Positions 22,408-44,285 of a DNA stretch of 64,000 nucleotides are shown here, one piece after another (position 1 is the stretch's first letter; every line of letters starts with the position of its first letter). Position numbers and translations under genes: made by a program. The stretch covers positions 1 through 64,000 of the forward strand of contig CAWFFU010000011.1 of NCBI GenBank assembly GCA_963815215.1, written 5' to 3'. Below the pieces are notes generated by a model, which worked only from the letters and a program-made list of their open reading frames with translations, made no database searches and was not told the DNA's origin. This DNA comes from an uncultured Trueperaceae bacterium (lineage in GTDB: Bacteria; Deinococcota; Deinococci; Deinococcales; Trueperaceae).

Positions 22408-22412
22408 CGACC

Positions 22413-23207
22413 GTGCCGCCTGCCATCACCTGCCAAGGATTGGCCCGCAGCTTCGATGCGTTCGTCGCGGTCCGCGAAGTGAGCTTCGCCGTCGAGGAAG
22501 GTGAACTGTTCGGCCTGCTGGGACCCAACGGTGCGGGCAAGTCCACCACGCTGCACATGCTCACGACCGTGCTGGAGCCTAGCCAGGGCTCCGCTGCGGT
22601 GCTGGGGCACGACGTTCAGAAAGATGCCGCCGTCGTCCGGTCCCTCATCGGGATGGTGTTCCAGGAGCCGGCGCTGGACGAGCGCCTCACCGCGCGCGAG
22701 AACCTCGCCATGCACGCGGTGCTGTACGCCATCCCTAGGGCCGTGACACGCGAGCGCATCCAGCTGGCCCTGGAGTGGGCAACGCTCGAGAAGGACGGGG
22801 ACCGGGCGGTGCGCACCTTCTCGGGAGGGATGAAACGACGCCTCGAGCTGGCCCGCGCCCTCATGCACGATCCGAAGGTGCTGTTCCTCGACGAGCCTAC
22901 CGTCGGACTCGACCCGCAGGCCCGGCGCCATCTCTGGGAGAGCGTCCGCACCCTTCGGAGAGAGGGCCTTACCGTGTTCATGACGACGCACTATCTGGAG
23001 GAAGCCGAAGACTGCGACCACGTCGCCATCATGGACCACGGTGAGGTCATCGCGTTCGGATCGCCCGGCGAGCTCGAGGGCACGCAGGACCGCACCCTGG
23101 AGGACGTCTTCCTGGACCTGACGGGACGGGCGCTGCGCGACGAGGCGGCCACACCGCGGGCACGACTCCTTGCCTTCGGCAAGCGGGGCGGGGAGCACAC
23201 ACGGTGA
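22413..23207 (+). CDS. ABC ATP-binding protein (DrrA/PedB-like)
   Basis: GPNGAGKST, FSGGMKRR, LFLDEPTVGLD, TTHY. Confidence 0.9.
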   Translation: MPPAITCQGLARSFDAFVAVREVSFAVEEGELFGLLGPNGAGKSTTLHMLTTVLEPSQGSAAVLGHDVQKDAAVVRSLIGMVFQEPALDERLTARENLAMHAVLYAIPRAVTRERIQLALEWATLEKDGDRAVRTFSGGMKRRLELARALMHDPKVLFLDEPTVGLDPQARRHLWESVRTLRREGLTVFMTTHYLEEAEDCDHVAIMDHGEVIAFGSPGELEGTQDRTLEDVFLDLTGRALRDEAATPRARLLAFGKRGGEHTR

Positions 23208-24091
23208 GGGCGGCCGTCCAGGGCCCATCGCGCCCCGCACTGGATGTGCGGGTCGCGGCAGCGTTCTGGCGCCGCGAGATGCTCCGCTACTGGCGCGATC
23301 GCTCCCAACTCTTCGGCGGCTTCTCGCGCACGGTGCTGTGGCTGATCATCCTCGGATTCGGCCTGGGAGCAGCGCTCCGCCAGATCGAGGGGTACAGCTA
23401 CGCGCAGTACATCCTCCCCGGTGTCGTCACCCTGAACGTGCTCTTCGCCTCCCTGCAGTCGGCGATCGCGATCGTCTGGGACCGCGAGGTGGGCCTTCTT
23501 CGCGAGGTCCTCGTCTCCCCCGCACCGATGTTCTCGGTGGCGCTCGGCAAGGTGCTCGGCGGTGCAACCGTGGCCGTCGTGCAGGGCACCATCCCGCTGA
23601 TCTTCGCACCCATCATCGGGGTTCGTCTCACGGTGCCCAACGTGCTGCTCGCCTGGTGCGTGATGCTCTCGATGGGCGTTCTGCTCACGTCCTTCGGCGT
23701 GGTGATCGCCGCCCGGATGAAGACGTTCGAAGGGTTCGGAAGCATCTCCAACGGCATCATCCAGCCGCTGTACTTCCTGTCGGGCGCCATCTTCCCCATC
23801 CGCGGCATCATCGGCGGTGTGGGTTTCCTGTCCATCCCGGATCAGCTGCGGCAGGAGCTCCAGCGCTACGGCGTGTACTCGATCGGGAGCGGCTGGCTGG
23901 TTCAGCTTCCGATCTGGCTGCGGGTGCTGGTCTACGCCAACCCGGTCAGCTACGAGCTCGACCTGCTACGCACCGTGCTGCTCGGCTTCCGGCAGCTCCC
24001 AGGCATCGCCGACCTGAGCGTGGCGCTCGTCCTACCGCTGCTGGCAACAGGCGTGGCGGCGCGGGCCATGCGCCGCATGTACAAGCACTGA
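23204..24091 (+). CDS. ABC-2 permease (DrrB/PedC-like)
   Basis: YILPGVV, DREVGLLREVLVSP, FLSGAIFP, NPVSY. Confidence 0.88.
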   Translation: MRAAVQGPSRPALDVRVAAAFWRREMLRYWRDRSQLFGGFSRTVLWLIILGFGLGAALRQIEGYSYAQYILPGVVTLNVLFASLQSAIAIVWDREVGLLREVLVSPAPMFSVALGKVLGGATVAVVQGTIPLIFAPIIGVRLTVPNVLLAWCVMLSMGVLLTSFGVVIAARMKTFEGFGSISNGIIQPLYFLSGAIFPIRGIIGGVGFLSIPDQLRQELQRYGVYSIGSGWLVQLPIWLRVLVYANPVSYELDLLRTVLLGFRQLPGIADLSVALVLPLLATGVAARAMRRMYKH

Positions 24092-24131: not shown

Positions 24132-27100
24132 CTATACTCCCCGCGCGGTCCCGGGACTCCGGCCACGCGATGCCCGGCCACGCCGGAGCATCGCCCACCA
24201 GGTCCGGAGCGACAGGTACCGTGCCGCCAGCTCTACCAGGAACACGCCCAGCGCGAGCAGGAGCCACAGGTCGGGAAGGAAGCGCGAGGTCAAGCGCCAA
24301 CCCGACCGGCCGGGCACCAATGGCTCCGGCCCGGTCAGGACGCGGCCACCCGTCGCGCCGGCGATGGCCTCGAGCAGGCCGGGTTGGTCCGCGCCCTGCG
24401 CGTACCTCGCCGGATAGGTGGCGACCAACAGGCCGGATGCCGGGGTCCAGGTTGTGGGTCCCGTGGCCCCGCCGGTCGGGCCGACCTGCGCTCGGTAGCT
24501 GCCTGCGCCGTCGATCGCGAAACCGCCCTCGTAGCTCCCCTGAGCCGCTTCCCGTAGGGTCACCGTCTGCTTGCGACCGTCGGGGCCGGTGACGGCCGCG
24601 GCGAGGCGAACGCCGGAGGCGGGCTCGCCGTTCGGTGCCACGGCCTGGACCTCGATGCGTCCCTCATCTCCCCGGCGCGTGAGGCGCACGTTGAGACCGG
24701 GGCGCGGAGCCTTGGAAAGGGTCCAGCGCACCGCCTGCGACCACAGCTTGGCGTAGATCGGGTCGTTCAGCCACGCAGCCGTCCACGGGCCTGCCGCCTC
24801 AGACGCGAAGGCGATCACCCGGCCCACGCCGTAGCGCCATGAGGCCAGCAACGGGGTACCGTCGGCCCCCGCGAGCGCCACGTTCGCCTGGGGCTTGACG
24901 GACGTCTGGACGTACCCTCCCAGCGGCGGAAGGGTGTCGGGGAGCCCTTCCAGGAAACTCGCCTTGCGATCGCCCCAGATGGGCTGGATGGACTCGCTCT
25001 TCACGGGGTTGGCCGAGAGCAGCAGGGCCTCCTGCGCCAGGATGCTCGGCAGCGCCTTGACATCGGTGGCGGCGTGGAACGCGCCCTTGCCCAGTGAGGC
25101 GATGTGCTGCAGGAAGCTCTTGTCCGCTTCCTCGCTGATGGAGACCGCGCTGACGGTGATGCCTGCCGCACGCATCTGGGAGATGATGCCCTCGAAATCG
25201 GCGGGTTGCGACAGCCCGTCGGACATCACGACGACGTGCTTCGTCATCGAGTCCACCCCCTGGAGCTCGTGCAGCGCCTCGACCAGCGCCGGGTACAGCG
25301 CCGTCCCACCCGCCGCCTGGACGGCGGCCAGCCGGCTCGACAGGTCGGTGAGGGCGCTCACCTTCTGCAGGGGCACGACCGGGGTGGCCCTGGTGTCGAA
25401 CACCACCACGCCCGTCAGGCTGGCAGGATTCAGGAGCTTGACGGCGTCCACCGTGGCGCTCTTCGCGATCGCCAGCCGCGACATGCCACCCACCTGCTGC
25501 TGCATGCTGCCGGAGCGGTCCAGCACGAACAGCAGCGCCACCTGAGGGGCCTGTCGGGGGATCTTGCTGGAGAGCGGTGACATGCGCTCGATCGGCGTGT
25601 TGAAGTAGCCGCCGGGCCCGAAGCTGTTGGCACCCCCAAGGATCAACAGCCCACCACCGTCGTCCCTCACCCAGGTCTCGAGCTGGGCCTGTTGTGTCGA
25701 GTGCAAGTCGATCGCCGGCACATCCATGAGGATGGCGGCGTCGTACGCGAGCCAGCCCTTGACGTCCCAGGGAGCGTTCGTGGGCGACACCACGTCGGCC
25801 TTCACGCCCTGCTCGGCGAGGGCGGCGACGAGCACCTTGGCGCGGGCTGGCGTCTCGGTCACGAGCGCGACCTTCGGCTCGGGGCGTACATCGACGACTG
25901 CGGTATTGCGGTCATTGGTCGCGAACGTGTCACTCGCGGCCTTGACCTCCATGGTGACCGTGTGCTCGCCACTCGTGTCAACAGTGAGCTTGGCCTGAAC
26001 GTCGTTGCTCCCCTGGGCGAGCTGTACGTTCCGCTGCTCCTTGAGGACTCCGTCCTGCAGGATGCGGAGGGTCGCCGGTTGCGGCGTCGCGCTGCGGACG
26101 ATCCCGTGTACCGTGAACGGCCCCTTCGGGTAGACGTCGGGCGGTGTCCGCACCGCCTCGACCGATGCGTCCCCGGTGCGTCCTGCCGCCACCGGCAAGA
26201 CGTCGATCGGGATCCTCCGCGCGCGGGCCTCGGCAAGGGCGTCACCCAGATCGCCACCCGCTGCGGCATCACTGGCGGCCACCACCACCCGCCCGCCCCG
26301 ACCGCGAGGCAGCATGCCCAGCGCGGTCCGGAGGGCGTCGCCGAGGTCGGAGCCTGGCCAGGTAGCGGCCGGCACCGACGCCGTAGGGCGCCACCGCGAG
26401 CCGAGGTCGGCCGCCACCGCGGGCTCGGAGCTCAGCGACACGACGCCCAGGCGGGTGTTGGCACCCGCGCTCCCCGCGGCCGCCGCGCGGAACGACCGAA
26501 GGGTCGACGAGGCCGGCGTAGGAAGCAGGCTCGGCTGGTCGGATATGAGCACCGCCTGATGGTCGTGCTCCGGCCAAGGAAGGGGAGGATCGACCAGGGC
26601 CAGCACCAGTAGCGCTGCCGCCGCGAGCCGCCACGCCCACACCGCACGCCACCGGAACGTCCGTCCCCGGCCACGGGAACGCTGGCCCAGGGGCGCGCCG
26701 GCAGCCAGCCAGGCCTCCGCCAACAGGACGAGCAGCGCCGCCGCCAGCAGGACCTTCCAGGTCGCCGGAAGATTCCGAGCGCCGGGCGCGGCCCCTGTTC
26801 CCTTCGACTGCAAGGCGGAGAAGGACGACCCCCAGGCATTGACCGCGACCGTTCGCCGGGCAGCGCCGTCCTCCACCGTGTACAGGCCTGGCTGACGGGG
26901 CCTGAACAGGGGGGCGAGACCCGCTGCGTACCACGCCTCCGGCGTGGCTCCCGACGCGGCTCCCGGGGTGGCTCGCGGCGTGACCCACGGATCGAGCAGC
27001 GGGATGGCCGCGCCGGTGGGGCCGTGCAGCTGCGCACTCGGACCGGCGAGACCGGGATCGAGCGGGCAGGCCTGGCCCGCCCGGCAAGGGGTCACGACCG

Positions 27101-28574
27101 CCCGGCCCAGATCCGGAGCCACCCACCGAACGAGATCGTAGACGAACGCAGGAAAACTCGTCAGCGTCGGCCAGTCGCTGTCCTTCAACGCGAAGGTGGT
27201 CAGCACCTCGCGCCCCTGAAGGGTGGTCCGGGCCTGGACCAGCGGGTGCCCCCCGGCCTGCAAGAGGACGTCGGCTCCCGGGAGTCGCGGCGCGACGTCG
27301 GCCCGCCTGACGTGGAGCGCGGTCCAGTCGACCGTCCGGCTCAGCGGATGATCGGGTAGCCAGGCGCTCGCCGTGGGCGCGGACACCGCGGCGCCGAAAG
27401 CGACCCCGGGCGGCGGCGCATCCAACCACCAGGTCGCCGTAGCGGGGCGTCGATCGACATGGACGCCGTCGACCACGACCAGAGCGTAGTCGGACACCGA
27501 GGGAGGCAAGCTCGCGGCGCGGTAGACCTTGACGCCGTCGATGGAGGTGAGGGCACGCTCTAGCGGGGCGTCGCCGGGTCCGACCTCCAGCACCTTGACC
27601 TGCAAGGGGCCCGCTCGCAACAGGTAATCGGCACGGTTGTCGCTGGCAAGGTCGTCCGCCGGAAGGCGCAGCTCGAGCGTACCGGGCGCAGGAAGCTTCA
27701 GCTCGGTCTGGAACGTCGCCCTGCCGTCCGTACCAAGATTCACGTCCAGCGATGTCCATGGCAGCATGCTGTCGGCTCCCCCGGTGCCGAACAAGACATC
27801 GACCTGGGTGCGGTCCAAGCTGCCCGCATAGCGGCGGACGGTCCCTGCGATCCGCCAGGTGCCGGATGCGGTCTGGGCTACGCTGACCGAATCCAGGCCC
27901 AGGTTCGAAGGGTGGGCGCCGGCGAACGAGATGCTGCGCACGCTCGCATCCCCGAGCGAGGAGGCAACAGCGGCGGTGGCGGCCTTCGCATCGGACGGGT
28001 CCGTGAGGATCGTGACGGCGGTGCGCTCTCCGCGGCGGACCAGATCCGGCAGGACCCGCCCTAGCTGCGCCCAGTCGGGGTCCGCCGCCGTCGGCGCCAG
28101 CGCCGACGCCGCTTTGCGCGCCGCGTCGAGCGACGTGAGCCGTGCGCCCAGCACCTCTGGGACCGCGCCCATCGCCACGATCGACACGCGCTCGCGCCGC
28201 CCTGAACCCACGAGATGCCGTCGCAGGCCCGACTCGAGGTAGCTCCGCGCGGCAGCGATGCGGCTCGGCGGTACGTCTCCGGCCTGCATGCTCCCGGACG
28301 CGTCCACCACCACGATCCAGTGGTCCGGGACGGGTCCCCCGAAGGTGGGGCGGGCCAGGCCCAACACCAGAAGCGTCAGCGCGAGGAGCTGGAGCAGCAG
28401 CAGAAGCGTCGGCACGGGCACTCTTCGGCTCGCACGCGTCGCCGGGACGCCCAGCACACGGGACCAGATCAGGATGCTGGGCACCACGACGCGCCGCCGA
28501 CGGCGGAGGTGCATCGCCAGGATGGGCAGCGCGAGAAGCTCGAGGAGTAACCACTCCGGGCGGACGAAGGTCAC
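24132..28574 (-). CDS. Giant BatA / VWA / GATase-like / VWA membrane protein
   Basis: BatA N-terminus (PILAMHL..VPSILIW..LLLQLLALTLLVLGLARP); MIDAS DASGSM and DRSGSM; GGGLLILGGANSFGPGGY; WRYGVGRV. Confidence 0.82.
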   Translation of the reverse strand: MTFVRPEWLLLELLALPILAMHLRRRRRVVVPSILIWSRVLGVPATRASRRVPVPTLLLLLQLLALTLLVLGLARPTFGGPVPDHWIVVVDASGSMQAGDVPPSRIAAARSYLESGLRRHLVGSGRRERVSIVAMGAVPEVLGARLTSLDAARKAASALAPTAADPDWAQLGRVLPDLVRRGERTAVTILTDPSDAKAATAAVASSLGDASVRSISFAGAHPSNLGLDSVSVAQTASGTWRIAGTVRRYAGSLDRTQVDVLFGTGGADSMLPWTSLDVNLGTDGRATFQTELKLPAPGTLELRLPADDLASDNRADYLLRAGPLQVKVLEVGPGDAPLERALTSIDGVKVYRAASLPPSVSDYALVVVDGVHVDRRPATATWWLDAPPPGVAFGAAVSAPTASAWLPDHPLSRTVDWTALHVRRADVAPRLPGADVLLQAGGHPLVQARTTLQGREVLTTFALKDSDWPTLTSFPAFVYDLVRWVAPDLGRAVVTPCRAGQACPLDPGLAGPSAQLHGPTGAAIPLLDPWVTPRATPGAASGATPEAWYAAGLAPLFRPRQPGLYTVEDGAARRTVAVNAWGSSFSALQSKGTGAAPGARNLPATWKVLLAAALLVLLAEAWLAAGAPLGQRSRGRGRTFRWRAVWAWRLAAAALLVLALVDPPLPWPEHDHQAVLISDQPSLLPTPASSTLRSFRAAAAGSAGANTRLGVVSLSSEPAVAADLGSRWRPTASVPAATWPGSDLGDALRTALGMLPRGRGGRVVVAASDAAAGGDLGDALAEARARRIPIDVLPVAAGRTGDASVEAVRTPPDVYPKGPFTVHGIVRSATPQPATLRILQDGVLKEQRNVQLAQGSNDVQAKLTVDTSGEHTVTMEVKAASDTFATNDRNTAVVDVRPEPKVALVTETPARAKVLVAALAEQGVKADVVSPTNAPWDVKGWLAYDAAILMDVPAIDLHSTQQAQLETWVRDDGGGLLILGGANSFGPGGYFNTPIERMSPLSSKIPRQAPQVALLFVLDRSGSMQQQVGGMSRLAIAKSATVDAVKLLNPASLTGVVVFDTRATPVVPLQKVSALTDLSSRLAAVQAAGGTALYPALVEALHELQGVDSMTKHVVVMSDGLSQPADFEGIISQMRAAGITVSAVSISEEADKSFLQHIASLGKGAFHAATDVKALPSILAQEALLLSANPVKSESIQPIWGDRKASFLEGLPDTLPPLGGYVQTSVKPQANVALAGADGTPLLASWRYGVGRVIAFASEAAGPWTAAWLNDPIYAKLWSQAVRWTLSKAPRPGLNVRLTRRGDEGRIEVQAVAPNGEPASGVRLAAAVTGPDGRKQTVTLREAAQGSYEGGFAIDGAGSYRAQVGPTGGATGPTTWTPASGLLVATYPARYAQGADQPGLLEAIAGATGGRVLTGPEPLVPGRSGWRLTSRFLPDLWLLLALGVFLVELAARYLSLRTWWAMLRRGRASRGRSPGTARGV

Positions 28575-29452
28575 CACAGGAACCCCGCAGACCGCCAATC
28601 GTGGAGCAATACGCGCGTCAGCGCGGCATCCGAGCGAACGCCGAAGTAGCGTCCGCCACGACGCGCGAGGGTCTGCGCGAGCTGGTCGCGCGCGGAAGCC
28701 AGTTCCGACCGGTAGCGATCGAACACATCGCGGTCCAGCGCAACGTCGAGCGGACTCTCGCCCCCCTCCGCGTCGAACAGGTGAGCGGCTCCGACGCCCA
28801 GCAATTCGGGGTCTTCCTCCTCGGGCGCCAGCACCTGGACCCCGGCCACCTCCTGCCCCGCCGCTTCCAGTAGGCGCACCACACCATCGGCGTCGTCATC
28901 CATCCAGTCGCTCACCACCACGACCAGCCCGCTCTGGGGCAAGCGGCCCGCAGCGGAGCGCACGGAGTCCAGCAGGCGCGTGACGCCGGAGGGCCGCCGG
29001 TGCTCGAGCCAGTTGAACAGCTCGCCCGCCCGTTGGAGGCCGCCCAAGCGGTGGAACCACGACACCCGGCCGTCGGCCAGCACACCCACCGTGACGGCAT
29101 CCCCTCCGGAGAGACCGACGTAGCTCAAGGCGGCGACCAGCGACGCCGCGAAGCGGTACTTCTCGGGCTCCCCGAACCCCATCGAGCCACTCGCGTCCAG
29201 CAGCATGGTGATCTCGATCGACTGGTGCAGTGAGAACAGCTTCACGTGGTGCTGTTTCAGGCGCGAGTAGACGTGGGAATCGAGGTAACGGATGTCGTCG
29301 CCGAACTGGTACGGACGGTGATCGGCGAACTCCATACCGGCCCCGTGCCTGCGCGAACGGCGGTCGCCGATGCCGCTGAACGGCTCGGCGTGCTGCAAGC
29401 GGATCCGGAGCCGCCCCAGACGTTGCTGAAGGTGGGGATCCAGGAGCGTCAC
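28571..29452 (-). CDS. DUF58 domain protein
   Basis: GMEFADHRPYQFGDDIRYLD, LDASGSM, VVSDW. Confidence 0.9.
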   Translation of the reverse strand: MTLLDPHLQQRLGRLRIRLQHAEPFSGIGDRRSRRHGAGMEFADHRPYQFGDDIRYLDSHVYSRLKQHHVKLFSLHQSIEITMLLDASGSMGFGEPEKYRFAASLVAALSYVGLSGGDAVTVGVLADGRVSWFHRLGGLQRAGELFNWLEHRRPSGVTRLLDSVRSAAGRLPQSGLVVVVSDWMDDDADGVVRLLEAAGQEVAGVQVLAPEEEDPELLGVGAAHLFDAEGGESPLDVALDRDVFDRYRSELASARDQLAQTLARRGGRYFGVRSDAALTRVLLHDWRSAGFLW

Positions 29453-29456
29453 GATC

Positions 29457-30467
29457 TCAGGGCTTGATCGCCCGCTCGAGCAGTGGCGGAAGGATGTCCT
29501 CGGCGGTCACGCCGTCGGCCTCCGCTTCGAAGTTGAGGGAGAAACGGTGCCGCACGGAGGGGAGCATCACGGCCCGCAGGTCGTCGAAGCTCACGTTGTA
29601 GCGGCCCTCCAACAGGGCACGCGCCTTCGCCGCCAGGATCATCGTCTGGCCACCGCGCGGGCTGACACCGTAGCGGCCGAAGCGCTGGACTTCCTGGCTG
29701 GCGGCGATACCCGGCTGGGTCGCCAGCACGAAACGGACGACCGCCTCGCGCACGTGACTGGCGATCTCGACCTCACGTGTCACGCCCTGTAGGTGCAGGA
29801 TGTCCTGCGGGGCGAGTAGCTCACGCGGCTCGTCCTGCTGTTGGCCGGTCGTCAACGCGAGGATGGCGTCGAGCACTTCGGCCGATGGGAAGTGGATGAC
29901 CACCTTGAAGAAGAAGCGGTCGATCTGCGCTTCCGGAAGGATGTACGTACCCTCCATCTCGATCGGGTTCTGGGTGGCGAGCACGAAGAACGGCTCGGGC
30001 AGCACATGGCTCTGTCCGGCTGCCGTCACGGTGCGCTCCTGCATGGCTTCGAGGAGCGCCGATTGCGTCTTGGGGGTCGCCCGGTTGATCTCGTCGGTCA
30101 GGACCATCTGAGCGAACACAGGGCCCTGCTGGAAGCGCGAATGGCTGTTGCCCTGTTCATCTTGCACCAGAACGATGGTGCCGGTGATGTCCGCGGGCAT
30201 CAGGTCCGGCGTGAACTGGATACGGGAGAACTGCAGCCCGCACACCGATCCCACGGTCCGCACCAGGAGGGTCTTGCCCAGCCCCGGCGCCCCTTCGACG
30301 AGGACGTGGCCACCGCACATCAGGCTGATGAACAGCTGGTCGATGACGTCCTCCTGCCCGACGATGAAACGTGCGGCCTCCTCACGAGCAGAACGCAGTC
30401 GCGCCAGGGTGTCGTCAAGGACAGCCGGATCGATCGTTGCGAACCCCGCCTGACCTTCAGATGCCAT
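29457..30467 (-). CDS. MoxR-family AAA+ ATPase
   Basis: GAPGLGKT, RIQFTPDLMPAD, DEINRATPKTQSALLEAMQE, ATQNPIEMEGTY. Confidence 0.95.
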   Translation of the reverse strand: MASEGQAGFATIDPAVLDDTLARLRSAREEAARFIVGQEDVIDQLFISLMCGGHVLVEGAPGLGKTLLVRTVGSVCGLQFSRIQFTPDLMPADITGTIVLVQDEQGNSHSRFQQGPVFAQMVLTDEINRATPKTQSALLEAMQERTVTAAGQSHVLPEPFFVLATQNPIEMEGTYILPEAQIDRFFFKVVIHFPSAEVLDAILALTTGQQQDEPRELLAPQDILHLQGVTREVEIASHVREAVVRFVLATQPGIAASQEVQRFGRYGVSPRGGQTMILAAKARALLEGRYNVSFDDLRAVMLPSVRHRFSLNFEAEADGVTAEDILPPLLERAIKP

Positions 30468-30551
30468 CTCGCATCACCTCTCGCCCTCCCTGGGCCGGCC
30501 CGTCCGTCGGAACCCATACCGACGATCTGCGCGGGCGCTTCAGATCGAATG

Positions 30552-32090
30552 TCACGGCGTCGAGCCCCGCGGCCCGGAGGCCGTCCCGGAGGCTGAAGCG
30601 TCGGACGGAAGGAAGTAGCGGCCGACCGCGGATCGCTCCATGCCGTCCACGATGGGGCCGACGGGCCGGGCCGTTTCGCTGGGCGCGGCACCCGCAACCG
30701 CCGCGCCGGGTGCGACGTCGGTCACCTGCACACGATGGGTATCGGGAGCCGCGTTGAGTTGGATGCGCTGACCGCCCGCTACCTCGGCGGAAGGCAGGTC
30801 GACCTTCGTTCCACTCGCCGTCGCAGGCATCCCCCCGGGCAGGGGCGCGCCCTGACTCAGCGGCTGCGTGCCCTGACCTGCCGCATCGCCGGGCCCCTGG
30901 GTCGCGTGGCGCGCCGCTCCAGCGGGCTGGCCACCCGGGCTGCCGGCCTGGTCGAGCAGAGCGTTCGCTTGCTTGAAGAGCGCCGCCTGCCCGGGGTCCT
31001 GACGCGCGTAGGTCCCGGGCGCATGAAGGGTCGGCCCCGGTGTGGTACCCATCTGGGACAGCGCCCCCGCCCCAGGCGCCTTGGACTGGGTGCGGTTGGG
31101 AGCGCCGGCCTCCAGTTGCTGCACGAGATCCGACAACGATGAGGATGGTGCGGCCCCCTTGGAAGTGATCTTGACCTTCAGGCCCTGACCGGCCGACGGT
31201 TGCGCGGCGGCGCCGGCCGCGCCCGGTGGCGCGGTCGGCGAGCCTCGTGGCGCCGAACTGCTCGCCAACTTGGTGGACCCACCCGGTGGTGACGTGATCT
31301 GCCCGTACGCCGCCTGGAGTTCGACCCGAAGTCGAGAGACCTCCCGCGCCACGGTCCCGCTCTGGATCTGACCGCTCGCCATACGGGCTCCCAGGTCCTG
31401 GAGCGAGGCGGCGATGGTCTGGAGATTCGGGTCGTTGCGGACGAAGGCGTCCTGGGCCACCAGGGCCGCGGCTCGCTGGACGTCCGTCACGGTCGGAACA
31501 GCCGTGGCGACACTGCCTCCGGGGGCACTCCCCGCCGACGTTCCGGCCCCGGCCGGTGTGACCATCGGCCGCAGAGGCACGAGCTGCACCGCGACGACGG
31601 CGACGAGCGCCACGACGAGCCAACGAGCGGGCCGTGCCAGCGGCACCTCGACCAACGCCTGCGGCTCAACGCGCGCAGCGACCGCAGCCGCGTCGGTCAT
31701 GAGCAGCGGCTGCAGTCCCGACATCCGGGCACCACCCCTGCCTTCGCCGACTTCGAGCGCTGTGCTCACGCGCTCCTGGAGTCGGTAGCGCTCATCGGCG
31801 CGCCGGGCCAATTCGGCGACGCTAGGCACGCTCCGCCGGACGTGCTGCCAGGCCACCAGCCCTACCAGTACGACCAGCCCTACGACGATGCCTGTCGACC
31901 CGGTGCGCATCCCACCCCAGAGCCTGGCAGCAGGAACAACGAACGCGCCGACCAACCGCCATGCTGCGACGACACCGAGAACGAGGGCCGCCCCGACACA
32001 CGCGTCCCTCATCAGCAGGCGTTCCCGGATCCGTGCCCGCGCCCTCCGCAGTCCGCGAAGGAGGGTGAAGAGCCGAGGGTCACCGATCAA
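30552..32090 (-). CDS. Membrane-anchored coiled-coil/low-complexity protein of the MoxR cluster
   Basis: TM segments, LQERVSTALE motif, G/Q/A-rich tail ending AVGRYF; TTG start with GAGGGG. Confidence 0.7.
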   Translation of the reverse strand: MIGDPRLFTLLRGLRRARARIRERLLMRDACVGAALVLGVVAAWRLVGAFVVPAARLWGGMRTGSTGIVVGLVVLVGLVAWQHVRRSVPSVAELARRADERYRLQERVSTALEVGEGRGGARMSGLQPLLMTDAAAVAARVEPQALVEVPLARPARWLVVALVAVVAVQLVPLRPMVTPAGAGTSAGSAPGGSVATAVPTVTDVQRAAALVAQDAFVRNDPNLQTIAASLQDLGARMASGQIQSGTVAREVSRLRVELQAAYGQITSPPGGSTKLASSSAPRGSPTAPPGAAGAAAQPSAGQGLKVKITSKGAAPSSSLSDLVQQLEAGAPNRTQSKAPGAGALSQMGTTPGPTLHAPGTYARQDPGQAALFKQANALLDQAGSPGGQPAGAARHATQGPGDAAGQGTQPLSQGAPLPGGMPATASGTKVDLPSAEVAGGQRIQLNAAPDTHRVQVTDVAPGAAVAGAAPSETARPVGPIVDGMERSAVGRYFLPSDASASGTASGPRGSTP

Positions 32091-32205: not shown

Positions 32206-34323
32206 CTACTGGCACGTCGTGGCGGCGCCGCGCACTCCCAGGGTATCGAGTTGCGCGTTGACGTCACCGGCTTGCCCCAGACCCGAAGGGACCGTTGCGG
32301 CAACGCTGGCCATCGCTCTCTGAGCGTCGGGCTCCGGGCCCCACGAGGCACTGGGGTCGAGCTTGGCGATGTACAGCGGCTGCCGGAGCTGATGGTCCCA
32401 GGGCCGGAACGATAGTGGCACCTCCTTGGCGAGATCGAAGGTATGGTCCGGATCCGCGAGGTAGGCCGCGATCGTTGCCGGATCGATGGATCCCGTGGAC
32501 GCGCTGGCGCCGGCGACGATCTTGATCGCCATGTAGGTCGACCACGCGCCCGCGTCCATCGCCACGCCGGCCTGCGCAGCGAAGGCCTGGTTGAGGCCGG
32601 CCGCCGCCTTGGTATCGAGGGCCGGATCCCACATGACGGGCCGGTAGTCCGACCCGAGCGTGGGGTTGTCCTGCGCCAACTGTTGGAAGACGTAACGATC
32701 CTGGGCGTAGGTCGGGAGCAACCCGGTCACCGCCAGGCCCTTGTCCTGGTGCGGGATCTGGCTCAGGAACAGACCCTGCTGCCTGGGATCCAATACCGTT
32801 ACCACCAGGTCCGGCGACGACTTCTCTATGGCGCCGATCGCGTCGTAGAAGATCGTGGCGTCCGGAGCCACCCCCAGATGCCCCACGACCGTGCCACCTC
32901 CGGCCTTGGAGAGCGCGCGCTGGGCGGCCGCGACGGTCGCTGCCTCGTCGCTCCCGAGGGCCACGACGTACCAGCGCGAGCGATGCGTGGCGACCGACCA
33001 GCGAGCGAGGGCGTCCAGGTACATGGAGTTGCTGGGAGCAACGTGGAACACGAACGCGCTGCACTGACCACGAAGCTCCGCCGACGAGTCCGCGACGTTC
33101 AGGAACGGGACTCCGAGCTGACTCGCGACACGGGCGAGCGCCGCGGCCTGACCGTCCCCCATCCCGCCGATCAAGGCCGACACGTGATCGACCAGCACCA
33201 GCCGGCGGGCCGCGACCGCGGCCGCGGTCGCGGTCGGGCTGCTCGCGAACCGGACGCGCAGGTCACGCCCCGACGACGCGAACGTACGCCCCACAAGGCT
33301 ATCGGCCAGCGAACCGCCGGCCTGCGCCCCGGCTGCACCTGCATCCGTGATCGCGGGGAGCGACGTGGGTATCGGTAGCACCACCCCGACCACCAGCGGC
33401 TGCGGCTGCGGCGGAGGCGACGCCACCGGCTGCGTCACCGAGAGCGTCGGGATGCCTGCGTCGCTCAAGGCGGTCTGGATGCGGCTCCAACCCGCGGCGA
33501 GCGCGTTGTTGACGTCCCGCTGCAGACTGTCGTCACCCGGTCGCACGCCAACGGTCTCGAGATGGAACATGGCGTATCCGGCCGGCGTGATCTCGGGCGT
33601 GACGGCGTGCATCTGGAGGTGGCGCGAAGGCTGCTGGACGAAATACGTCGCATAGGCCCCGTAGAGCATCACGGCGTCGACCGTGCCGTCCTCGAGCTTC
33701 GCGATCAGCGGTGCCATGCTCGGTCCCCCGTCGACCGTGAGGTCCGGCGAGATCGGGACGATACTCGAGGCGAACCCCGCGTCCTGCAGGGCGCTCGCCA
33801 TCAGGGAGTTGGGGGGAACGCCAACTTTGAGGGTCTTCAGGACGGGATCGTCGAGACCCTTCACGGAGAAGCTCGCGTCGCTTCGGTACACGAAAACATA
33901 AGGAATCCGAAGATAGGGGACCGTGTTCACCAGTCCCTGGGCACCCTCGGGAGCGCCCATGACCATATCGCACGCCCCCGGTGCCAGCTCGTGCTGGACC
34001 GCGTAACCGTTGCCACCTGCCGGCGTGTAGACAAGGTCCAGGTTCGCATGCATCTCGTCCGCCAGGATGCCCGCGAGCTTCTCCTCGTAGCCCGGGTGAG
34101 CCCGGTCGGAAGCCGGCGGCTCGTGGGCGGAGACGCACACCCGCAGGTCCCAGCCGGCCTGCTGTGCCGTTGCGGCGGACAGGACGGCCAGAAGGGCCGC
34201 CGCCAAGAGCACCGCCATCGACCAGGAACGATTTCTTGGGCCCCCATCGGCGAGCCGGCCGGGCCGGGCCATGGCCCGCCGGGTGCTGGAACCGGCGTTT
34301 CTAGCGCTGGGTTTCCGCCTCAT
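32206..34323 (-). CDS. Fusion: MxaJ/XoxJ-like SBP plus PedA1-like SBP
   Basis: N-domain LRVCV...GYEEKLA...GACDMVMG...PYLRIPYVFVYR...LDDPVLK; C-domain with LSFRPWDHQLRQP and LDTLG...C; single ORF. Confidence 0.8.
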   Translation of the reverse strand: MRRKPSARNAGSSTRRAMARPGRLADGGPRNRSWSMAVLLAAALLAVLSAATAQQAGWDLRVCVSAHEPPASDRAHPGYEEKLAGILADEMHANLDLVYTPAGGNGYAVQHELAPGACDMVMGAPEGAQGLVNTVPYLRIPYVFVYRSDASFSVKGLDDPVLKTLKVGVPPNSLMASALQDAGFASSIVPISPDLTVDGGPSMAPLIAKLEDGTVDAVMLYGAYATYFVQQPSRHLQMHAVTPEITPAGYAMFHLETVGVRPGDDSLQRDVNNALAAGWSRIQTALSDAGIPTLSVTQPVASPPPQPQPLVVGVVLPIPTSLPAITDAGAAGAQAGGSLADSLVGRTFASSGRDLRVRFASSPTATAAAVAARRLVLVDHVSALIGGMGDGQAAALARVASQLGVPFLNVADSSAELRGQCSAFVFHVAPSNSMYLDALARWSVATHRSRWYVVALGSDEAATVAAAQRALSKAGGGTVVGHLGVAPDATIFYDAIGAIEKSSPDLVVTVLDPRQQGLFLSQIPHQDKGLAVTGLLPTYAQDRYVFQQLAQDNPTLGSDYRPVMWDPALDTKAAAGLNQAFAAQAGVAMDAGAWSTYMAIKIVAGASASTGSIDPATIAAYLADPDHTFDLAKEVPLSFRPWDHQLRQPLYIAKLDPSASWGPEPDAQRAMASVAATVPSGLGQAGDVNAQLDTLGVRGAATTCQ

Positions 34324-34367
34324 CGGTGAACGAACCTCCTGCGCCCCCACGGGACGGGGGCAGATAG

Positions 34368-34402
34368 ACGGTGGGGTGCTCGGCACGCGGGCACCCCACC
34401 GT
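34368..34402. terminator. Hairpin between dehydrogenase and XoxJ fusion
   Basis: ACGGTGGGGTGC...GCACCCCACCGT; no U-tract. Confidence 0.5.
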
Positions 34403-34430
34403 GATGTCATGGATCGCCTTCCGCTCTAGC

Positions 34431-36143
34431 TCAGTTCCCGGAGCTTGGAAGCGCGAACACGAAGACCGAAACGTCTCCCGTCACCGGATCCGACACCTTC
34501 TTCTGGTGGTGGATCACGATGCCGCCCAGACCGCCGTCGATGATGGCGACGTACTGCTTGCCGTTCACTTCGTAGCTGATCGGGTTGCTCGCCACGTACG
34601 CCGGCAGCACCTGATCGAACAGCACCTTACCGGTCTTGGCGTCCAGAGCGCGGAAGTGCCGGTCGGGGTTCCCGAAGAACACCAGGTTGCCCTTGGTCAC
34701 GACGGGACCGCTGTACTGCGAGTACGGCGAGGGGAACGACCAGGCGACCTTGCCCGTGGTCGGATCGATGGCCGAGATCGCTCCGATGTGGTCGAACATC
34801 TCGGTCTGAGCGACCAGGCCGTAGTTGATCGGGTTCTGGCCCGGCTTCCAATCCGCCGCGCGCGGGTTGTCCGTCACCTGCTCGCAGTCGTTGTTGGTGG
34901 GGCGGTAGTACAGGCCGGTATCCGGGCTGAACGCCGCGGGCTCGAAGTCGACCCAGCGGAACATGCAGATCAGCTTCGTCTGACCCGGCTTGGTGAAGCG
35001 ATAGGAATCATCGATGATGGGCTTGCCATCCGCCGTGAACCCCTTGAGGTAGCTGGTCTTCGGCGCTTCCTGGAACGCGTTGATCCACTTGCCCGTCGCC
35101 GCATCCACTTCAACCAGGAAACCCTGTGTGGTCGCCAGCATTGCCACATTCTGCTTCTGACCGTTGACGGTCACGGGGGCGATGACCGGCGTCGGAATCT
35201 CGTCACCGTCCCACACACCGTTGGGAACGATCTGCTTGTACCACTTCAGCTTGCCGGTGGTCACGTCGAGCGCGACCCAGCTGTCCGTGTACAGGTTGCT
35301 CCCGCTACGCACCGTCTTGCCGTTGTTGTCCAGCGTTCCCCAGGGGATCGGCTGGCCCACGCCGTAGATCACCGTCTTCGAGGCGGGATCGTACGCGCCC
35401 GGCGTCCACGCCGACGCGCCACCCCACTGCGCCGCGCTCGGCGGCTGCCACGTGTCGAAGCCCGGCTCGCCCGGCTGCGGGACCGTGTGGAACGTCCACA
35501 GGATCTCACCGCTGTTCACGTCCATCGCGATGACCCGACCGTTGTTGCCGCCGGTATCGGCGCCGGACGGACCCACGATGATCTTGCCGTCGCCGAAGAT
35601 CGGTCCGGCACTGAAGCCCTCACCGGTCTTGATGGCTCCGACCTGCGTGCTCCAGATCTGCTTGCCGGACTTGGCGTCCAACGCAACGACCCGGCCGTCA
35701 CCCGTGGTCCAGAACACCTTGCCCTCGTAAACCACGACGCTGCCGCGTTGGCGCTGCGCCGTCAGCGAGTTGGTGTTCTTGTCCAGCGTGACCTTATGCT
35801 CCCACACCAGATCGCCGTTGGTGGCGTCCAGCGCGTCCACCCGGTCAGGGCCGTTGATGTACAGGATCCCGCCGTACTCCACCGGCGAGCCCTGGGGCTC
35901 GTATACCGTGCTGAGACCGCGGCTCCACGCCATGCGCAACGTGCCCACATTGTCCGTGTTGATCTGATCCAGCGGGCTGTAGCGCCACATCTGCAAGTTG
36001 CGCCCGTACGTCGGCCAATCGCCTGCCGCCGGGTTCGTCAGCTGCTCCGTCGTCTGGGCGAACACCGCCGGCGCCATCAACAACAGCGCGAGAAGCACTC
36101 CACCCATCACCTTGAGCCCCTTGTGGGACATTGCCCTGCTCAC
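34431..36143 (-). CDS. Periplasmic PQQ-dependent dehydrogenase (alcohol-dehydrogenase fold, divergent)
   Basis: Signal peptide; DWPTYGRN...RYSPLDQINTDNV, LDAKSGKQIW, WGGASAW, AYDP, NLYTDS, WDGDE, YEVNGKQYVA. Start 36143, 36131 or 36191. Confidence 0.9.
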   Translation of the reverse strand: MSRAMSHKGLKVMGGVLLALLLMAPAVFAQTTEQLTNPAAGDWPTYGRNLQMWRYSPLDQINTDNVGTLRMAWSRGLSTVYEPQGSPVEYGGILYINGPDRVDALDATNGDLVWEHKVTLDKNTNSLTAQRQRGSVVVYEGKVFWTTGDGRVVALDAKSGKQIWSTQVGAIKTGEGFSAGPIFGDGKIIVGPSGADTGGNNGRVIAMDVNSGEILWTFHTVPQPGEPGFDTWQPPSAAQWGGASAWTPGAYDPASKTVIYGVGQPIPWGTLDNNGKTVRSGSNLYTDSWVALDVTTGKLKWYKQIVPNGVWDGDEIPTPVIAPVTVNGQKQNVAMLATTQGFLVEVDAATGKWINAFQEAPKTSYLKGFTADGKPIIDDSYRFTKPGQTKLICMFRWVDFEPAAFSPDTGLYYRPTNNDCEQVTDNPRAADWKPGQNPINYGLVAQTEMFDHIGAISAIDPTTGKVAWSFPSPYSQYSGPVVTKGNLVFFGNPDRHFRALDAKTGKVLFDQVLPAYVASNPISYEVNGKQYVAIIDGGLGGIVIHHQKKVSDPVTGDVSVFVFALPSSGN

Positions 36144-36246: not shown

Positions 36247-37053
36247 TCACTTCGATAGGATCTGGCTCACCTCCTTTGCGGTCACGGCGCCATAGTCATT
36301 GCCCCACGACGTCCTCACGTACGTCGCAGCGCCCGCGATCTGGTCCTTCGATAGCGCCTTGCCGAAGGGCGGCATGAAGTGCCCGCCGTAGAAGATCTGC
36401 CGTACCACCATCTCGGTATTGCTCAGCTTGTCGTTCCCGACGAATTTCGGCCCCTTGCCGCCTTCGCCACTGGCTCCGTGACAAGCCGAGCAGATGTTGT
36501 CGAAGATCGGTTGGCCCGCGCCGCGCAGGTTCGACAGCTCCATGGCGCTGACGTTCGACGCCGTCGGCTGCTTGGCGCTCGCCGTGCTGCTGCTGGCCGG
36601 TGCAGGAGGCTTGATCGACTCGCCGTAGGGGGAAACCAGATCCCACTCCCCGCCGTGGGCGTTCACGCCCTCACCGTTGGTGTCACCCGACGCTTTGTCT
36701 TTGACGAAGGTGTACAGGGGGAGGCCGTTGTAGGTGACCTGCAGCGTCCCGTCCTGGCGCTTGATGGTGCCGAGAAGGCTGGCGGCCACGCCGGACGCCC
36801 CCGTAGGCGTTCCCGTGACGGCAAGCGGCGGCCACGCCTGGGCACAGGCGCCGCTGCAAGTGCTCGTATCCTTCGAATCGGAACTCAGGACGTACAGACT
36901 CTGCCCATTCCCGTCCACGAGGTACGTGCCGTAAGTCTTGCTCGTCGCCACCTGGACAGTCGGTGCTGAAGTCGAGCTCTGGCCCAACGCCAGGGCAAAC
37001 GCCAGCACCACCAAGGTGAGCCCAGAAATCAAGACAAGTCTACGCATAGGCAT
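36247..37053 (-). CDS. COG4315/Lipoprotein_15-repeat domain fused to class I cytochrome c
   Basis: LVDGNGQSLY..D..STCSGACAQAWPP, QVTYNGLPLYTFVKD..GDTNGEG; C-terminal CSACH...MPPF...YVRTSWGN; RBS GAGGAG. Confidence 0.85.
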   Translation of the reverse strand: MPMRRLVLISGLTLVVLAFALALGQSSTSAPTVQVATSKTYGTYLVDGNGQSLYVLSSDSKDTSTCSGACAQAWPPLAVTGTPTGASGVAASLLGTIKRQDGTLQVTYNGLPLYTFVKDKASGDTNGEGVNAHGGEWDLVSPYGESIKPPAPASSSTASAKQPTASNVSAMELSNLRGAGQPIFDNICSACHGASGEGGKGPKFVGNDKLSNTEMVVRQIFYGGHFMPPFGKALSKDQIAGAATYVRTSWGNDYGAVTAKEVSQILSK

Positions 37054-37066
37054 CCGCTCACTCCTC

Positions 37067-37098
37067 AAAAAAACCTGGGGGGCACCTTCAGGTGCCCC
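37067..37098 (-). promoter_or_regulatory. Terminator-like hairpin and T7 tract just upstream of the RBS
   Basis: Minus strand GGGGCACC-TGAA-GGTGCCCC-CCAGG-TTTTTTT-GAGGAG. Confidence 0.45.
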
Positions 37099-37263
37099 GC
37101 CGTGGCTCGTGTTTGACTGTCGTACGTTAACGCCGTCACCCGGCAGGCAATGGTGGCTTCCGTTACATTGTTGGGCGAAATTGGGACGTATGTCCCTAGC
37201 GGTTGGATCCAGGCTATGCATAGAAGCTCCTAGGAAGGATCAGCAGCTATCGTGTCTCGGTCG

Positions 37264-38001
37264 TCACGACTTGAGTTGCCGAACGGCGTCGCGCGATGCC
37301 TTCCAGAGAGCCGGGTCCTCGGGGTCCCGCGGCCGCGGGAAAGCTTCGGAGAGCCGGAACTCGCTACGCACGCGCCCAGGGCTGGCGCTCATCACGACGA
37401 CGCGGTCCGCGAGCAGTACTGCCTCGAGGGGATTGTGCGTCACCATCACCACGGTGCAGCCGAGCTCCCGCCAGAGACCCAGCAGCTCCTGCCGCATGGT
37501 CATCGCAGTCAGCTCGTCCAACGCACTGAACGGCTCGTCCATGAAGAGGATGTCCGGCTCCACGATCAGAGCGCGCGCCACGGCGACACGTTGCTGCATA
37601 CCGACCGACAGCCGCGAGGGGAACTCGCGTCCCAGCCCGGTCAACCCGACGCGCGCCAGCCATTGATCCTGGGCGGCCGTGTCCGAGCGTTTGGCTCCGT
37701 CGAGCACGAAGGCCAGGTTGTCTCGCACCCGCAACCACGGCAACAAGCGTGACTCCTGGAAGACGTGACTGATGACGGGCCCGTTGATGCCTCCGGACTC
37801 GAGTGCCACGCGCCCTGCATCGGGCCGGTCCAAGCCGGAGAGGATCTTCAGAAGGGTCGTCTTGCCGCAACCGGAGGGCCCGAGCAACGCAACGAACTCG
37901 CCGGCGTCGACCTCCAGGCTCACGCCGGCCACCGCCACGCGCTCACCGCCCCCTTCCAGGGGGAACCGCCGCACGATGCCCTCTGCAACGATCGCCGCCA
38001 C
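37264..38001 (-). CDS. NitT/TauT-type ABC ATPase (LutE-like)
   Basis: [35 protein letters not shown]. Confidence 0.9.
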
Positions 38002-38004
38002 AGG

Positions 38005-38898
38005 TCAGATCTCCCCCGCGCCCGTGGCGCGCCAACGGAACGCCCTGCGCTGCAACGTACCCAGGAGGGCGACATCGATCACGGCGAGGACCACCATCAT
38101 GGTGACGCCGTACGCCAGCACGCCCTTCATGTTGAACATCTGGAAGTAGAAGGAGATCATGTACCCGACGCCGTTCGTCCGGCCCAACAGCTCGGCCAGC
38201 ACGACCATCTTCCAGGCCAGGGACAGCGAGGCGCGGGCCGTGCCGATGACGTAGGGCATGAGTTGCGGCAGGATGACACGGAGCCAGATCTCCGCCCGCC
38301 GCCGACCGAAGGCGTGCGCCATCTCCAGGAGCTTCGTGTCGAGCGCGCGCGTGCCCTCTCGGAGCTGCACCACTACCGTCGGCGTGATCGTGATCACCAG
38401 GGCCCCGATGGCGGCCAGATCGTTGAGGCCAAGCAGCAGGTAGGCGACGACGAACAGGACGATACGGGGCACCGTCAGGCCGGCCAGCAACCAGCCCCCC
38501 AATAGGCGGTCCACCGTGCGCGAGAGGCCCATGGCCGCCCCAGCGATCACGCCAAGGAGCATACCGACGGAGAAGGCTACGAGAACGCGCTCAGCCGTAG
38601 CACCCAGGTTGAACAGGAGCGCCCCGCGCTGGTACTCCGCGGCGATGAACGCCAGCGTGCTCAGGGGGCCCGGCATGAGTTGCGACGGCAAGGCGCGGGC
38701 GAGGACCAACCACGCCGCCAGGATGGACGCGTAGGAGAGCGCCGTCCACCATCGTTGGGCGGATCGGCGCCTTCCAGCGCTTCGCCGATCCGCCAGCTGC
38801 CTGGCGGCGTCCACGGGATGAACCGCCGGTCGATCGCTCTCCGTAGCGAGCCTCCGTATCAGCCGTGCTTCACGGCGCGTACTTCGTTGTGAACGCAT
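38005..38898 (-). CDS. NitT/TauT-type ABC permease (LutF-like)
   Basis: [38 protein letters not shown]...GVG; start uncertain. Confidence 0.88.
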
Positions 38899-39853
38899 CG
38901 GCGGGAAGCTTGCTCACGCCCACGACGTTCGCCCCCGCGACTTTGACGAGCTGGTTGACGAGCGTCACGAGCCCATCGATCACGCCCTGGTTCCAGGCCG
39001 TTGGCAGGCCGGCCTCCCAACGCTTCCGCACCGACGGGAACAGCGACGGGTCGGGAAGACTGTACAGACCCTGGTCCAGGATCTTCTGCCACACGCCGTC
39101 CATGCTGTCGGCCGACATCCGTTGCTCGGTCTCCTTCATCGCCGCCAGGAAAGCGGTGACGGCCTTGGGATCTGCACCCTGCCGCGCGACGACCACCAGG
39201 ATCGGGAGGTCCGTCCGCATGCCGAGCTGGGCAAGCATGTCGGTGACGTTCATGATGTTGCGGTCCTGGCCCGAGCCCACCATCCGCGCCACGAAGTGCC
39301 AGTACGGGATGGCGGCATCGATCTTTCCGCTCGCCAGCAGCTGTGTCATCAGCGGCGGTGCAGCAGACAGGACCTTGCCGTCCACCTGCGGGTCGAAGCC
39401 GTACTTGCTGGTCGTGAGCGCACGCAGGATCAGAAGACTCTTGTCGCCCAGGCTGGACGCCGCGATCGTCTTGCCCTTCAGATCCGCGATGGACGTGATC
39501 GGGCTGTCCGCACGCACGACGACCCCGCCCGTGGCCTTGCTGTACGGATACACCGCCTGCACGGGAATCCCGTTGTTCCTGTCCTGGACCACGCCGATGA
39601 AGTCGTCAACGACGATGTCGGCGGCGCCTTCCTGTAGCGCAAGCCGTGAGGCCTGCTTGGTGGCGTACTTGGTCGATTGAACGTCTAGACCGTACTTGGC
39701 GTCGAGCCCGTAGTAATGCATCGCGTACACGACCCACGAGAACGTGCCGGCCGACTCCAACCCGACCTTGATAGGCATGGCCTGCTGCGCCGCGGCCGTT
39801 CCCGATCCCACGGTCGCGATGACGACGAACCAAGCGAGCACCCACTTGCGCAT
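38870..39853 (-). CDS. NitT/TauT-type SBP associated with PQQ clusters (LutA-like)
   Basis: GTFSW, GLD, SPITSIADLKGK, GDKS, APPL, DAAIPYWHFVARM; signal peptide. Confidence 0.8.
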   Translation of the reverse strand: MRKWVLAWFVVIATVGSGTAAAQQAMPIKVGLESAGTFSWVVYAMHYYGLDAKYGLDVQSTKYATKQASRLALQEGAADIVVDDFIGVVQDRNNGIPVQAVYPYSKATGGVVVRADSPITSIADLKGKTIAASSLGDKSLLILRALTTSKYGFDPQVDGKVLSAAPPLMTQLLASGKIDAAIPYWHFVARMVGSGQDRNIMNVTDMLAQLGMRTDLPILVVVARQGADPKAVTAFLAAMKETEQRMSADSMDGVWQKILDQGLYSLPDPSLFPSVRKRWEAGLPTAWNQGVIDGLVTLVNQLVKVAGANVVGVSKLPADAFTTKYAP

Positions 39854-40639: not shown

Positions 40640-40693
40640 GTACGCCTCCCAGGCGGGATGTCACCCGCATGAAGCTGCCTGCACATCCCGCAT

Positions 40694-40833
40694 AATGTAG
40701 CCCTGGTCCGTGCGAAGCGTCAAGCACCGTCACGACGCGAAGGCGCGCGCCGCAGCAGGCGCTCGCACGATCCGAGCGCGCTAGAGCCAAACGTCCCGAA
40801 CCCTATAGACAATCGTGAACGTAGTGTTAGACT
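40694..40833. promoter_or_regulatory. Divergent promoters (cytochrome c / cox-bc operon)
   Basis: Minus: TTGACG (40718-40723), 18 bp, TACATT (40694-40699). Plus: TAGACA (40806), 16 bp, TGt-TAGACT (40828-40833). Confidence 0.45.
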
Positions 40834-44283: not shown

Positions 44284-44285
44284 TC

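Follow-up and report, generated by a model that had tools for sequence, protein, structure and literature searches.

A clade of PQQ dehydrogenases in Deinococcota with altered metal-site residues, and the case for a lanthanide enzyme

The metal ligands of the lanthanide enzyme XoxF are described as Glu/Asn/Asp/Asp (bioRxiv 10.1101/2020.02.25.964783), and surveys assign the lanthanide dependence of pyrroloquinoline quinone (PQQ) enzymes by the D-x-D pair alone (PMC11996626). This rule has been tried only in enzymes that hold the Glu and the Asn as well. Among the proteins that serve such enzymes, MxaJ is described as loading PQQ into MxaF (PMC12276312), and the pedA1A2BC transporter as required for La3+-dependent growth of P. 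putida (PMC6839425). Transporters of the lut/ped type are reported to be needed for lanthanide-dependent growth in both P. putida and M. extorquens (PMC6839425, PMC12997753, PMC7391723), and pedA1A2BC is described as absent from P. aeruginosa PAO1, which uses Ca only (PMC12997753). The gene considered here lies on the reverse strand of a 64,000-nucleotide stretch of DNA from an uncultured Trueperaceae bacterium (contig CAWFFU010000011.1; the whole stretch is called the window) and encodes a PQQ propeller dehydrogenase that retains D-x-D and differs from XoxF at both other ligand positions. The favoured reading, which we put at about an even chance, is of a periplasmic PQQ- and Ln3+-dependent dehydrogenase of an alcohol or polyol larger than methanol, using scavenged PQQ, matured by a fused binding protein together with a MoxR/von Willebrand factor A (vWA) module, with its own cytochrome c as oxidant.

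The dehydrogenase, its clade and its metal site

The stop-free open reading frame (ORF) at 34431-36143 translates to 570 aa, with a likely start at the ATG at 36131, ahead of which GAGGTG is found; the database copy is 566 aa long. The N-terminus resembles a signal peptide, and by eye a cleavage would fall after ...AVFA, suggesting export. PF01011 matches at 224.9 bits (cut-off 26.7), this being the only PF01011 gene of a 97%-complete genome, and the AlphaFold2 (AF2) model is an eight-bladed quinoprotein propeller with a predicted local distance difference test score (pLDDT) of 96.4. Its best fold match is PedH (6ZCW; Z 50.5, root-mean-square deviation 1.9 Å over 526 residues, template modelling score 0.91), with several others tied; PedH, XoxF and DepA-type structures lie within a few Z units of each other. 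The best single-sequence match in the PDB is 22VI (E 4.8e-79), and identity to the XoxF and PedH structures is 30-32%. PQQ-site residues and the catalytic Asp are present by alignment (Q84, R133, S178, S193, W246 and D312). Atlas searches with the enzyme returned generic PQQ clusters only, and a search of sequencing runs listed no RNA data set containing it.

In a homologue search, about 110 proteins score above 390 bits, after which scores fall to about 305 (best 120 of 2064). The proteins form a single branch with 100/100 support, to which P0106 is sister, and are 39-82% identical to the query. Their scores stay under the NCBIfam cut-off of each of the three quinoprotein families: the query reaches 369.6 bits on the methanol/ethanol family TIGR03075 (cut-off 480; two further members reach 390 and 385), 310.6 on the acido-empty-quinoprotein group A TIGR04528 (cut-off 650), and 163.8 on the membrane glucose dehydrogenase TIGR03074 (cut-off 832.65), whose membrane anchor the 570-aa protein lacks. 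An earlier note on this DNA, made by eye, had proposed an uncharacterised clade, and both the branch and the scores bear it out. Named members come from Trueperaceae, Truepera sp. and Calidithermus, including C. terrae (P0023) and C. roseus (P0313, WP_119276574.1, 59% identical). In the window's phylum, 19 of 364 genomes hold a member at E <= 1e-100, one of them (G281) showing the paralogue type only. Searching GTDB contigs with the query yielded at least 80 distant loci, with no clade member among the matches listed; these loci served as outgroup only. No paper on the clade, or on the fusion protein discussed below, was found in the literature within reach, most subscription papers lying beyond it, and the string "Deinococc" does not occur in the accessible main texts of PMC11996626, 10.64898/2026.07.10.737718 and PMC10875860. 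The counts below cover 110 clade proteins, omitting P0002 (identical to the query), P0113 (a fragment) and P0106, and are compared with 235 outgroup rows which were picked by likeness to the query and are not a random sample.

HMMER alignments to PedH (6ZCV/6ZCW), 1YIQ and 1KB0 place D196 at the metal-binding Glu, Q264 at the Asn, D312 at the catalytic Asp and D314 at the second Asp (Table 1). SGAD falls onto GGEFG of PedH and GAEYG of 1YIQ/1KB0, GQP onto GNP/GNG, and WDGDE onto WDFDG, while TAQRQRG aligns with CCDVINRG, TTQGF with DRNGF and RWVDF with GAKNW. The ligands that the earlier note had assigned by eye, at exact positions, are thus the same residues that HMMER and L-INS-i alignments select, and its replacement of CCDxVNRG by TAQRQRG, loss of the RNG Arg and change of GGxNW to RWVDF are likewise borne out. 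It had also contrasted WDYDG of XoxF with WDYAG of MxaF; the former was seen in one row (L016), the latter nowhere in the analysis. The second Asp of lanthanide alcohol dehydrogenases (XoxF, ExaF and PedH) is therefore present as D314, two residues after the catalytic Asp; their 2D-1E-1N ligand set is broken by D196 and Q264, and their vicinal Cys-Cys and RNG Arg are missing from TAQRQRG and TTQGF.

Conservation of this arrangement is high. D314 is found in 110/110 proteins and D312 in 108 (Glu in the other two), R133 and W246 are invariant, and Gln or Glu stands at position 84 in 108, whereas Cys-Cys occurs in none of 111 rows (the 110 proteins and P0106). As in XoxF, carboxylates occupy three ligand positions, fixed across the 110 proteins. 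R396 (110/110) and W397 (108/110) are as strongly kept, with a frequency of 0.0 in the same columns of the outgroup rows; the C393/C420-type Cys pair is also seen in 9M2C. Since D196, D314 and R396 are fixed, the site is under selection and is not decaying, as the earlier note had held; decay or assembly error is ruled out by this conservation. Its proposed D/Q/D-x-D set is kept among homologues at D196 (109/110), D312 and D314, and varies at Gln264 (81/110).

The loop after D196 is one residue longer in the clade, at 12 residues in 137/137 clade Asp rows as opposed to 11 in 89/120 outgroup Glu rows. One large MAFFT alignment set the loop gap ahead of the Asp; preceding-strand anchoring, HMMER and L-INS-i alike put D196 in the Glu column. 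Asp with mostly Gln, the extra loop residue and the R-W loop are, by alignment, the features particular to the clade. In the favoured mechanism, Ln3+ would be held by three carboxylates and one amide (Gln or Asn), and the extra residue would perhaps let the shorter Asp reach the ion. D312 would act as catalytic base, and R396 may stand in for the lost RNG Arg. Loss of the disulfide could open the pocket to bulkier substrates, by analogy with enzymes of the DepA/sorbose-dehydrogenase type. The substrate is probably not methanol, as the earlier note suggested, judging by the 30-32% identity to XoxF/PedH structures and the missing disulfide and RNG Arg.

Nine of the genomes (G282, G299, G298, G280, G278, G274, G293, G345 and G281) carry a paralogue in tandem, directly after the fusion gene (L119-L126, L099). 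It lacks the catalytic Asp, reading WGYD, WSYD or WAYD, with Glu in G274, and mostly retains D196, Q264 and D314; 12 rows form one subclade. It is absent from the window's genome and is possibly a pseudo-enzyme partner or a cofactor carrier. Within the genus the cluster is patchy: with these queries the clade gene, the YVTN marker and the DUF58 orthologue (see below) were found in none of nine other genomes (G326-G334), of which G331 has a PqqT-like gene and a distant quinoprotein.

Table 1. Coordinates in the window of the dehydrogenase gene, its metal-site and active-site residues, and the neighbouring genes
Feature	Position	Strand	Basis or remark
PQQ 8-bladed beta-propeller dehydrogenase	34431..36131	-	PF01011, AF2 model; haem domain absent
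D196 of SGAD, metal-binding Glu position	35556..35558	-	Alignment; Asp in 109/110 clade proteins
Q264 of GQP, metal-binding Asn position	35352..35354	-	Alignment; Gln 81, Asn 29 of 110
WDGDE	35199..35213	-	D312 catalytic Asp 35208-35210; D314 second Asp 35202-35204
TAQRQRG where others have CCDxVNRG	35742..35762	-	PQQ-binding Arg R133 retained, 110/110
TTQGF, RNG arginine position = T339	35118..35132	-	T/V/S/P in clade, R or K never
C393 and R396-W397 in loop reading GGxNW elsewhere (RWVDF)	34953..34967	-	Alignment
C420, would-be partner of C393	34884-34886	-	C393 and C420 each 110/110
Lipoprotein_15 repeats and class I cytochrome c, likely electron acceptor	36247..37221	-	Precedes 16/16 related clade genes
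ATP-binding cassette (ABC) importer: ATPase, permease, PqqT-like binding protein (38870-39853)	37264..39853	-	PDB matches
Fusion: MxaJ/XoxJ-like domain (N), PedA1/LutA-like binding domain (C)	32206..34410	-	True start probably near 34218
512-aa ORF, MoxR AAA+ ATPase, DUF58 protein, large vWA protein	24132..32090	-	mxaR/S/C/L-like metal-insertion module
512-aa ORF ahead of MoxR	30552-32090	-	
pedA1A2BC/lutABEF-like unit: binding protein, YVTN propeller, 355-aa ORF, ATPase, permease	18970..24091	+	Converges on dehydrogenase operon
355-aa exported-looking ORF	21340-22407	+	
Second cytochrome c, oxidase cluster, Rieske/cytochrome b pair	40136-47433		Adjoins PQQ importer

Gene neighbourhood and the fused binding protein

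The order cytochrome c, enzyme, fusion is kept in 16/16 related clade genes from 14 genomes, and MoxR and/or vWA genes lie near the clade gene in 13/14 related genomes examined. Electrons would pass from the enzyme to the adjacent cytochrome c and then to a terminal oxidase. In related loci as well, the secreted Lipoprotein_15 repeat units are fused to cytochrome c. Further along the window, next to the importer, are genes for another cytochrome c, an oxidase cluster of the coxB/coxA/coxC/ctaG type and a Rieske protein paired with cytochrome b (Table 1). This group is a plausible electron sink; the neighbourhoods retrieved for relatives did not show it.

The PqqT-like protein of the importer has as its only PDB matches 9B1U/9B1V and 9OOZ (E 1.8e-26), 9B1U being described as PqqT (PMC11331073), and the T41, G112 and K142 positions are retained in an alignment read by eye. 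A search with a control that matched did not find pqqC in the window's genome, and a search for pqqE gave a sub-cut-off radical-SAM match only. Across the phylum pqqC occurs in 1/19 clade genomes and 10/364 overall, and the PqqT-like gene in 17/19 clade genomes. Because pqqC was not found, PQQ would be imported by way of the PqqT-like protein.

About 10 kb from the dehydrogenase gene, a unit whose gene types follow the order described for pedA1A2BC (PMC6839425) scores 125 bits on TIGR03863 (cut-off 413.6), 245 on TIGR03866 (287.3), 228 on TIGR03864 (302) and 110 on TIGR03861 (241). Its YVTN marker is present in 18/19 clade genomes and in 19/345 other genomes of the phylum, the clade genomes being kin and not independent. 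The 355-aa ORF of this unit is conserved and has no Pfam or NCBIfam match, an Atlas search having yielded no named match either; the 512-aa ORF ahead of MoxR is likewise conserved and without a Pfam or NCBIfam match. The gene context, which the earlier note did not use, leans to a lanthanide.

The gene that follows the dehydrogenase joins an MxaJ/XoxJ-like domain to one resembling PedA1/LutA. By analogy with MxaJ and MxaF, the former would load PQQ; for the latter, docking onto the enzyme is predicted. Co-folding of the enzyme with the PedA1-like domain scored 0.74, the best of three controls reaching 0.02; the mark used for docking is reached by 116/157 solved and 2/215 mismatched pairs, counts that hold only roughly. 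The runs share at least 88% of contacts, and partner pLDDT is at least 90, so that the modelling supports binding of this domain to the dehydrogenase. The predicted interface involves enzyme residues 70-80, 495, 511-514 and 538-561, on the outer strand of the propeller and the C-terminal segment, a location that, in the model, points to tethering while the enzyme matures and not to a transfer of the metal itself. Position 241 at the interface is Arg in 16/16 clade-linked fusions, in 0/3 fusions beside canonical enzymes and in 0/6 stand-alone PedA1-like proteins, a pattern behind part of which shared descent may lie. The 32 PDB relatives of the PedA1-like domain are described as ligand-binding proteins, and none is named as a quinoprotein complex. 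In G248, G173 and G288 a fusion of the same kind follows an enzyme of the canonical Glu/Asn/Asp/Asp, Cys-Cys type (L111, L113 and L134); the fusion is thus wider than the clade.

Which metal, and what the alternatives explain

Several observations weigh against a lanthanide. Every score of the pedA1A2BC-like unit falls under its curated cut-off. Deinococcus-family genomes that encode canonical E/N/D/D enzymes lack the YVTN marker (0/125 in family f2), and the transporter therefore cannot serve as an unambiguous sign of lanthanide use. MoxR/vWA modules are described as inserting Ca2+ into MxaF (PMC12276312), and a lanmodulin-like loop pattern matched nothing in the genome, which is a weak test. 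The predicted docking interface lies away from the four ligands and displays no metal hand-over, and in the fusion encoded in the window position 241 is Gln instead of Arg. For clade members, no reports of activity, bound metal or substrate were found. E. coli Gcd likewise has Asp at the Glu site (D354) and D-x-D (D466/D468, WDMD) and lacks vicinal Cys-Cys; D354 is taken to be a metal ligand there. This enzyme is described as taking Ca, Mg, Zn and Sr, and is predicted to be facultatively lanthanide-using (PMC11996626). The earlier note therefore goes too far in treating the second Asp as the mark of lanthanide enzymes. In addition, 36 two-Asp domains, most of them Glu-less, are predicted to prefer Ca (bioRxiv 10.64898/2026.07.14.738520). 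The outcome thus depends on D196 coming within reach of the ion; if it falls short, the site would be of this two-Asp, predicted Ca-preferring kind.

A Ca2+/Mg2+ quinoprotein acting on a bulky alcohol, polyol or sugar is accordingly the strongest rival, possible but clearly less probable than the favoured reading. D196 would here be too short to chelate, D314 would restore the charge, and the MoxR-DUF58-vWA module, present near the gene in 13/14 genomes, would insert a divalent ion. Precedents are offered by Gcd, by the Glu-less two-Asp sites as predicted in the preprint just cited, and by DepA/4CVB-type enzymes (22VI/9M2C), described as Ca enzymes, which have Gln at the Glu site and read WDQE, so that an acidic residue stands two positions beyond the catalytic Asp. 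The fixation of D196 in 109/110 proteins is, however, hard to explain if the residue does not bind, and the pedA1A2BC-like unit is retained although the genome has no other enzyme of this kind. In G030, G075 and G100 an orthologue of the DUF58 protein is encoded about 9-10 kb away from enzymes of the canonical E/N/D/D, Cys-Cys kind, so MoxR/vWA is not Ca-specific in the phylum and favours neither metal. As proof of Ca the module is ruled out, since it also adjoins these lanthanide-motif enzymes.

A bolder form of the lanthanide reading, which we consider doubtful, makes the clade a Glu-free (3-Asp/1-Gln) lanthanide quinoprotein of a new substrate class with a single fused chaperone, in which the XoxJ domain loads PQQ and the PedA1/LutA-derived domain docks and brings the lanthanide. 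If true, a lanthanide-uptake binding protein would be tied directly to enzyme metallation, a step unexplained even for XoxF.

It is unlikely that Asp196 and Gln264 form a compensatory pair which re-centres the ion and moves preference to another metal, e.g. smaller, heavier lanthanides. Gln is inferred to be ancestral in the clade, stands in 81/110 proteins, and is rare beside Glu outside it (4/120). Asn has nevertheless returned several times at least, the tree requiring 5 or more changes between Gln and Asn, while Asp196 stayed fixed in the 29/110 proteins concerned. Among outgroup rows, 54/235 have Asp at the Glu site, partnered by Asn in 46, Gln in 7 and Ser in 1; the position-196 count is strand-anchored, and a few rows (e.g. 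P0169 and P0171) are probably mis-anchored. Asp in place of Glu is thus common among unstudied quinoproteins, mostly with Asn, and does not need Gln. Of the earlier note's claim of compensation rather than decay, the absence of decay stands and the pairing is weak; a strict form of it is weakened by the same Asn and Asp-Asn rows. Families f2, which is related to the window's own, and f5 also hold a separate group (9/22 rows; L143-L149, L151) with GADW, GNPAP and (H/K)DxDT motifs, i.e. Asp/Asn/Asp/Asp without Cys-Cys, several members of which lie in frames of 690-810 codons and may carry an extra domain.

Finally, a non-catalytic PQQ or metal carrier or sensor, which the lost disulfide and RNG Arg and the clade's paralogues without the catalytic Asp might suggest, is improbable, as the catalytic Asp is kept here and in 108/110 proteins and a dedicated cytochrome c precedes 16/16 related genes.

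Comparison with known quinoproteins

The clade retains D-x-D, alters both other ligands and occurs naturally with either Gln or Asn, and therefore offers a test of how reliable the "lanthanide motif" is. Through it, Deinococcota and substrates other than methanol could be added to the range of lanthanide enzymes, the fused XoxJ-PedA1-like protein would be a handle on metal delivery to the active site, and some members carry the names of the described species Calidithermus terrae and C. roseus.

With PedH/ExaF, lanthanide type I ethanol dehydrogenases (6ZCV, 6ZCW), the query shares the fold, the catalytic and second Asp and the PQQ-site Gln, Arg and Trp, as well as a neighbourhood of cytochrome c, a PedG/XoxJ-like gene and a pedA1A2BC-like unit. 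It differs in Glu to Asp, Asn to Gln, the lack of Cys-Cys and of the RNG Arg, the R396-W397 loop, and the fusion of its XoxJ-like domain to a PedA1-like domain. XoxF (4MAE, 6OC5/6, 6DAM) likewise shares the fold, D-x-D and xoxJ- and cytochrome-like neighbours; unlike the query it has Glu/Asn/Asp/Asp, Cys-Cys and the RNG Arg, and it forms a separate clade on the tree.

The disulfide-less type I quinoprotein alcohol dehydrogenases of the DepA/4CVB/sorbose dehydrogenase group (22VI, 9M2C, 7WMD, 4CVB, 4MH1), described as Ca enzymes where DepA-type members are treated (PMC11331073, PMC11996626), resemble the query in lacking the vicinal disulfide and in a C-x(n)-N-x-C Cys pair. Their ligands are Gln/Gly/Asp/Glu (22VI, 9M2C) compared with Asp/Gln/Asp/Asp, and they have GGRDW where the query has RWVDF, and a Lys at the Arg site. 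In a quick tree the clade groups with DepA-like rows (support 99), represented by L104 and L110, which are motif-matched stand-ins and not the PDB proteins; in a careful tree both fall under one node (97/98) whose internal branching is not resolved and which includes two Glu-type rows as well. Gcd, which has a single Cys and K493 at the RNG site and so no Arg there either, is unlike the query in being membrane-anchored, distant on the tree and possessed of Thr at the Asn site.

The nearest parallel for the site itself is the 3D-1N arrangement, three Asp and an amide in an eight-bladed PQQ propeller, which was computed to prefer lanthanides in 5 fungal proteins (bioRxiv 10.64898/2026.07.14.738520) and which 29/110 clade members match. 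Those sites belong to fungal and algal proteins and are computational, and the word "Gln" does not occur in the accessible main text. By its sequence the query would be classed as type I quinoprotein alcohol dehydrogenase-like, and it falls outside the XoxF/PedH, DepA-type and Gcd families by ligand set, disulfide and hidden Markov model score. The individual substitutions have precedents; the gene context, with its putative fused chaperone, is the new part.

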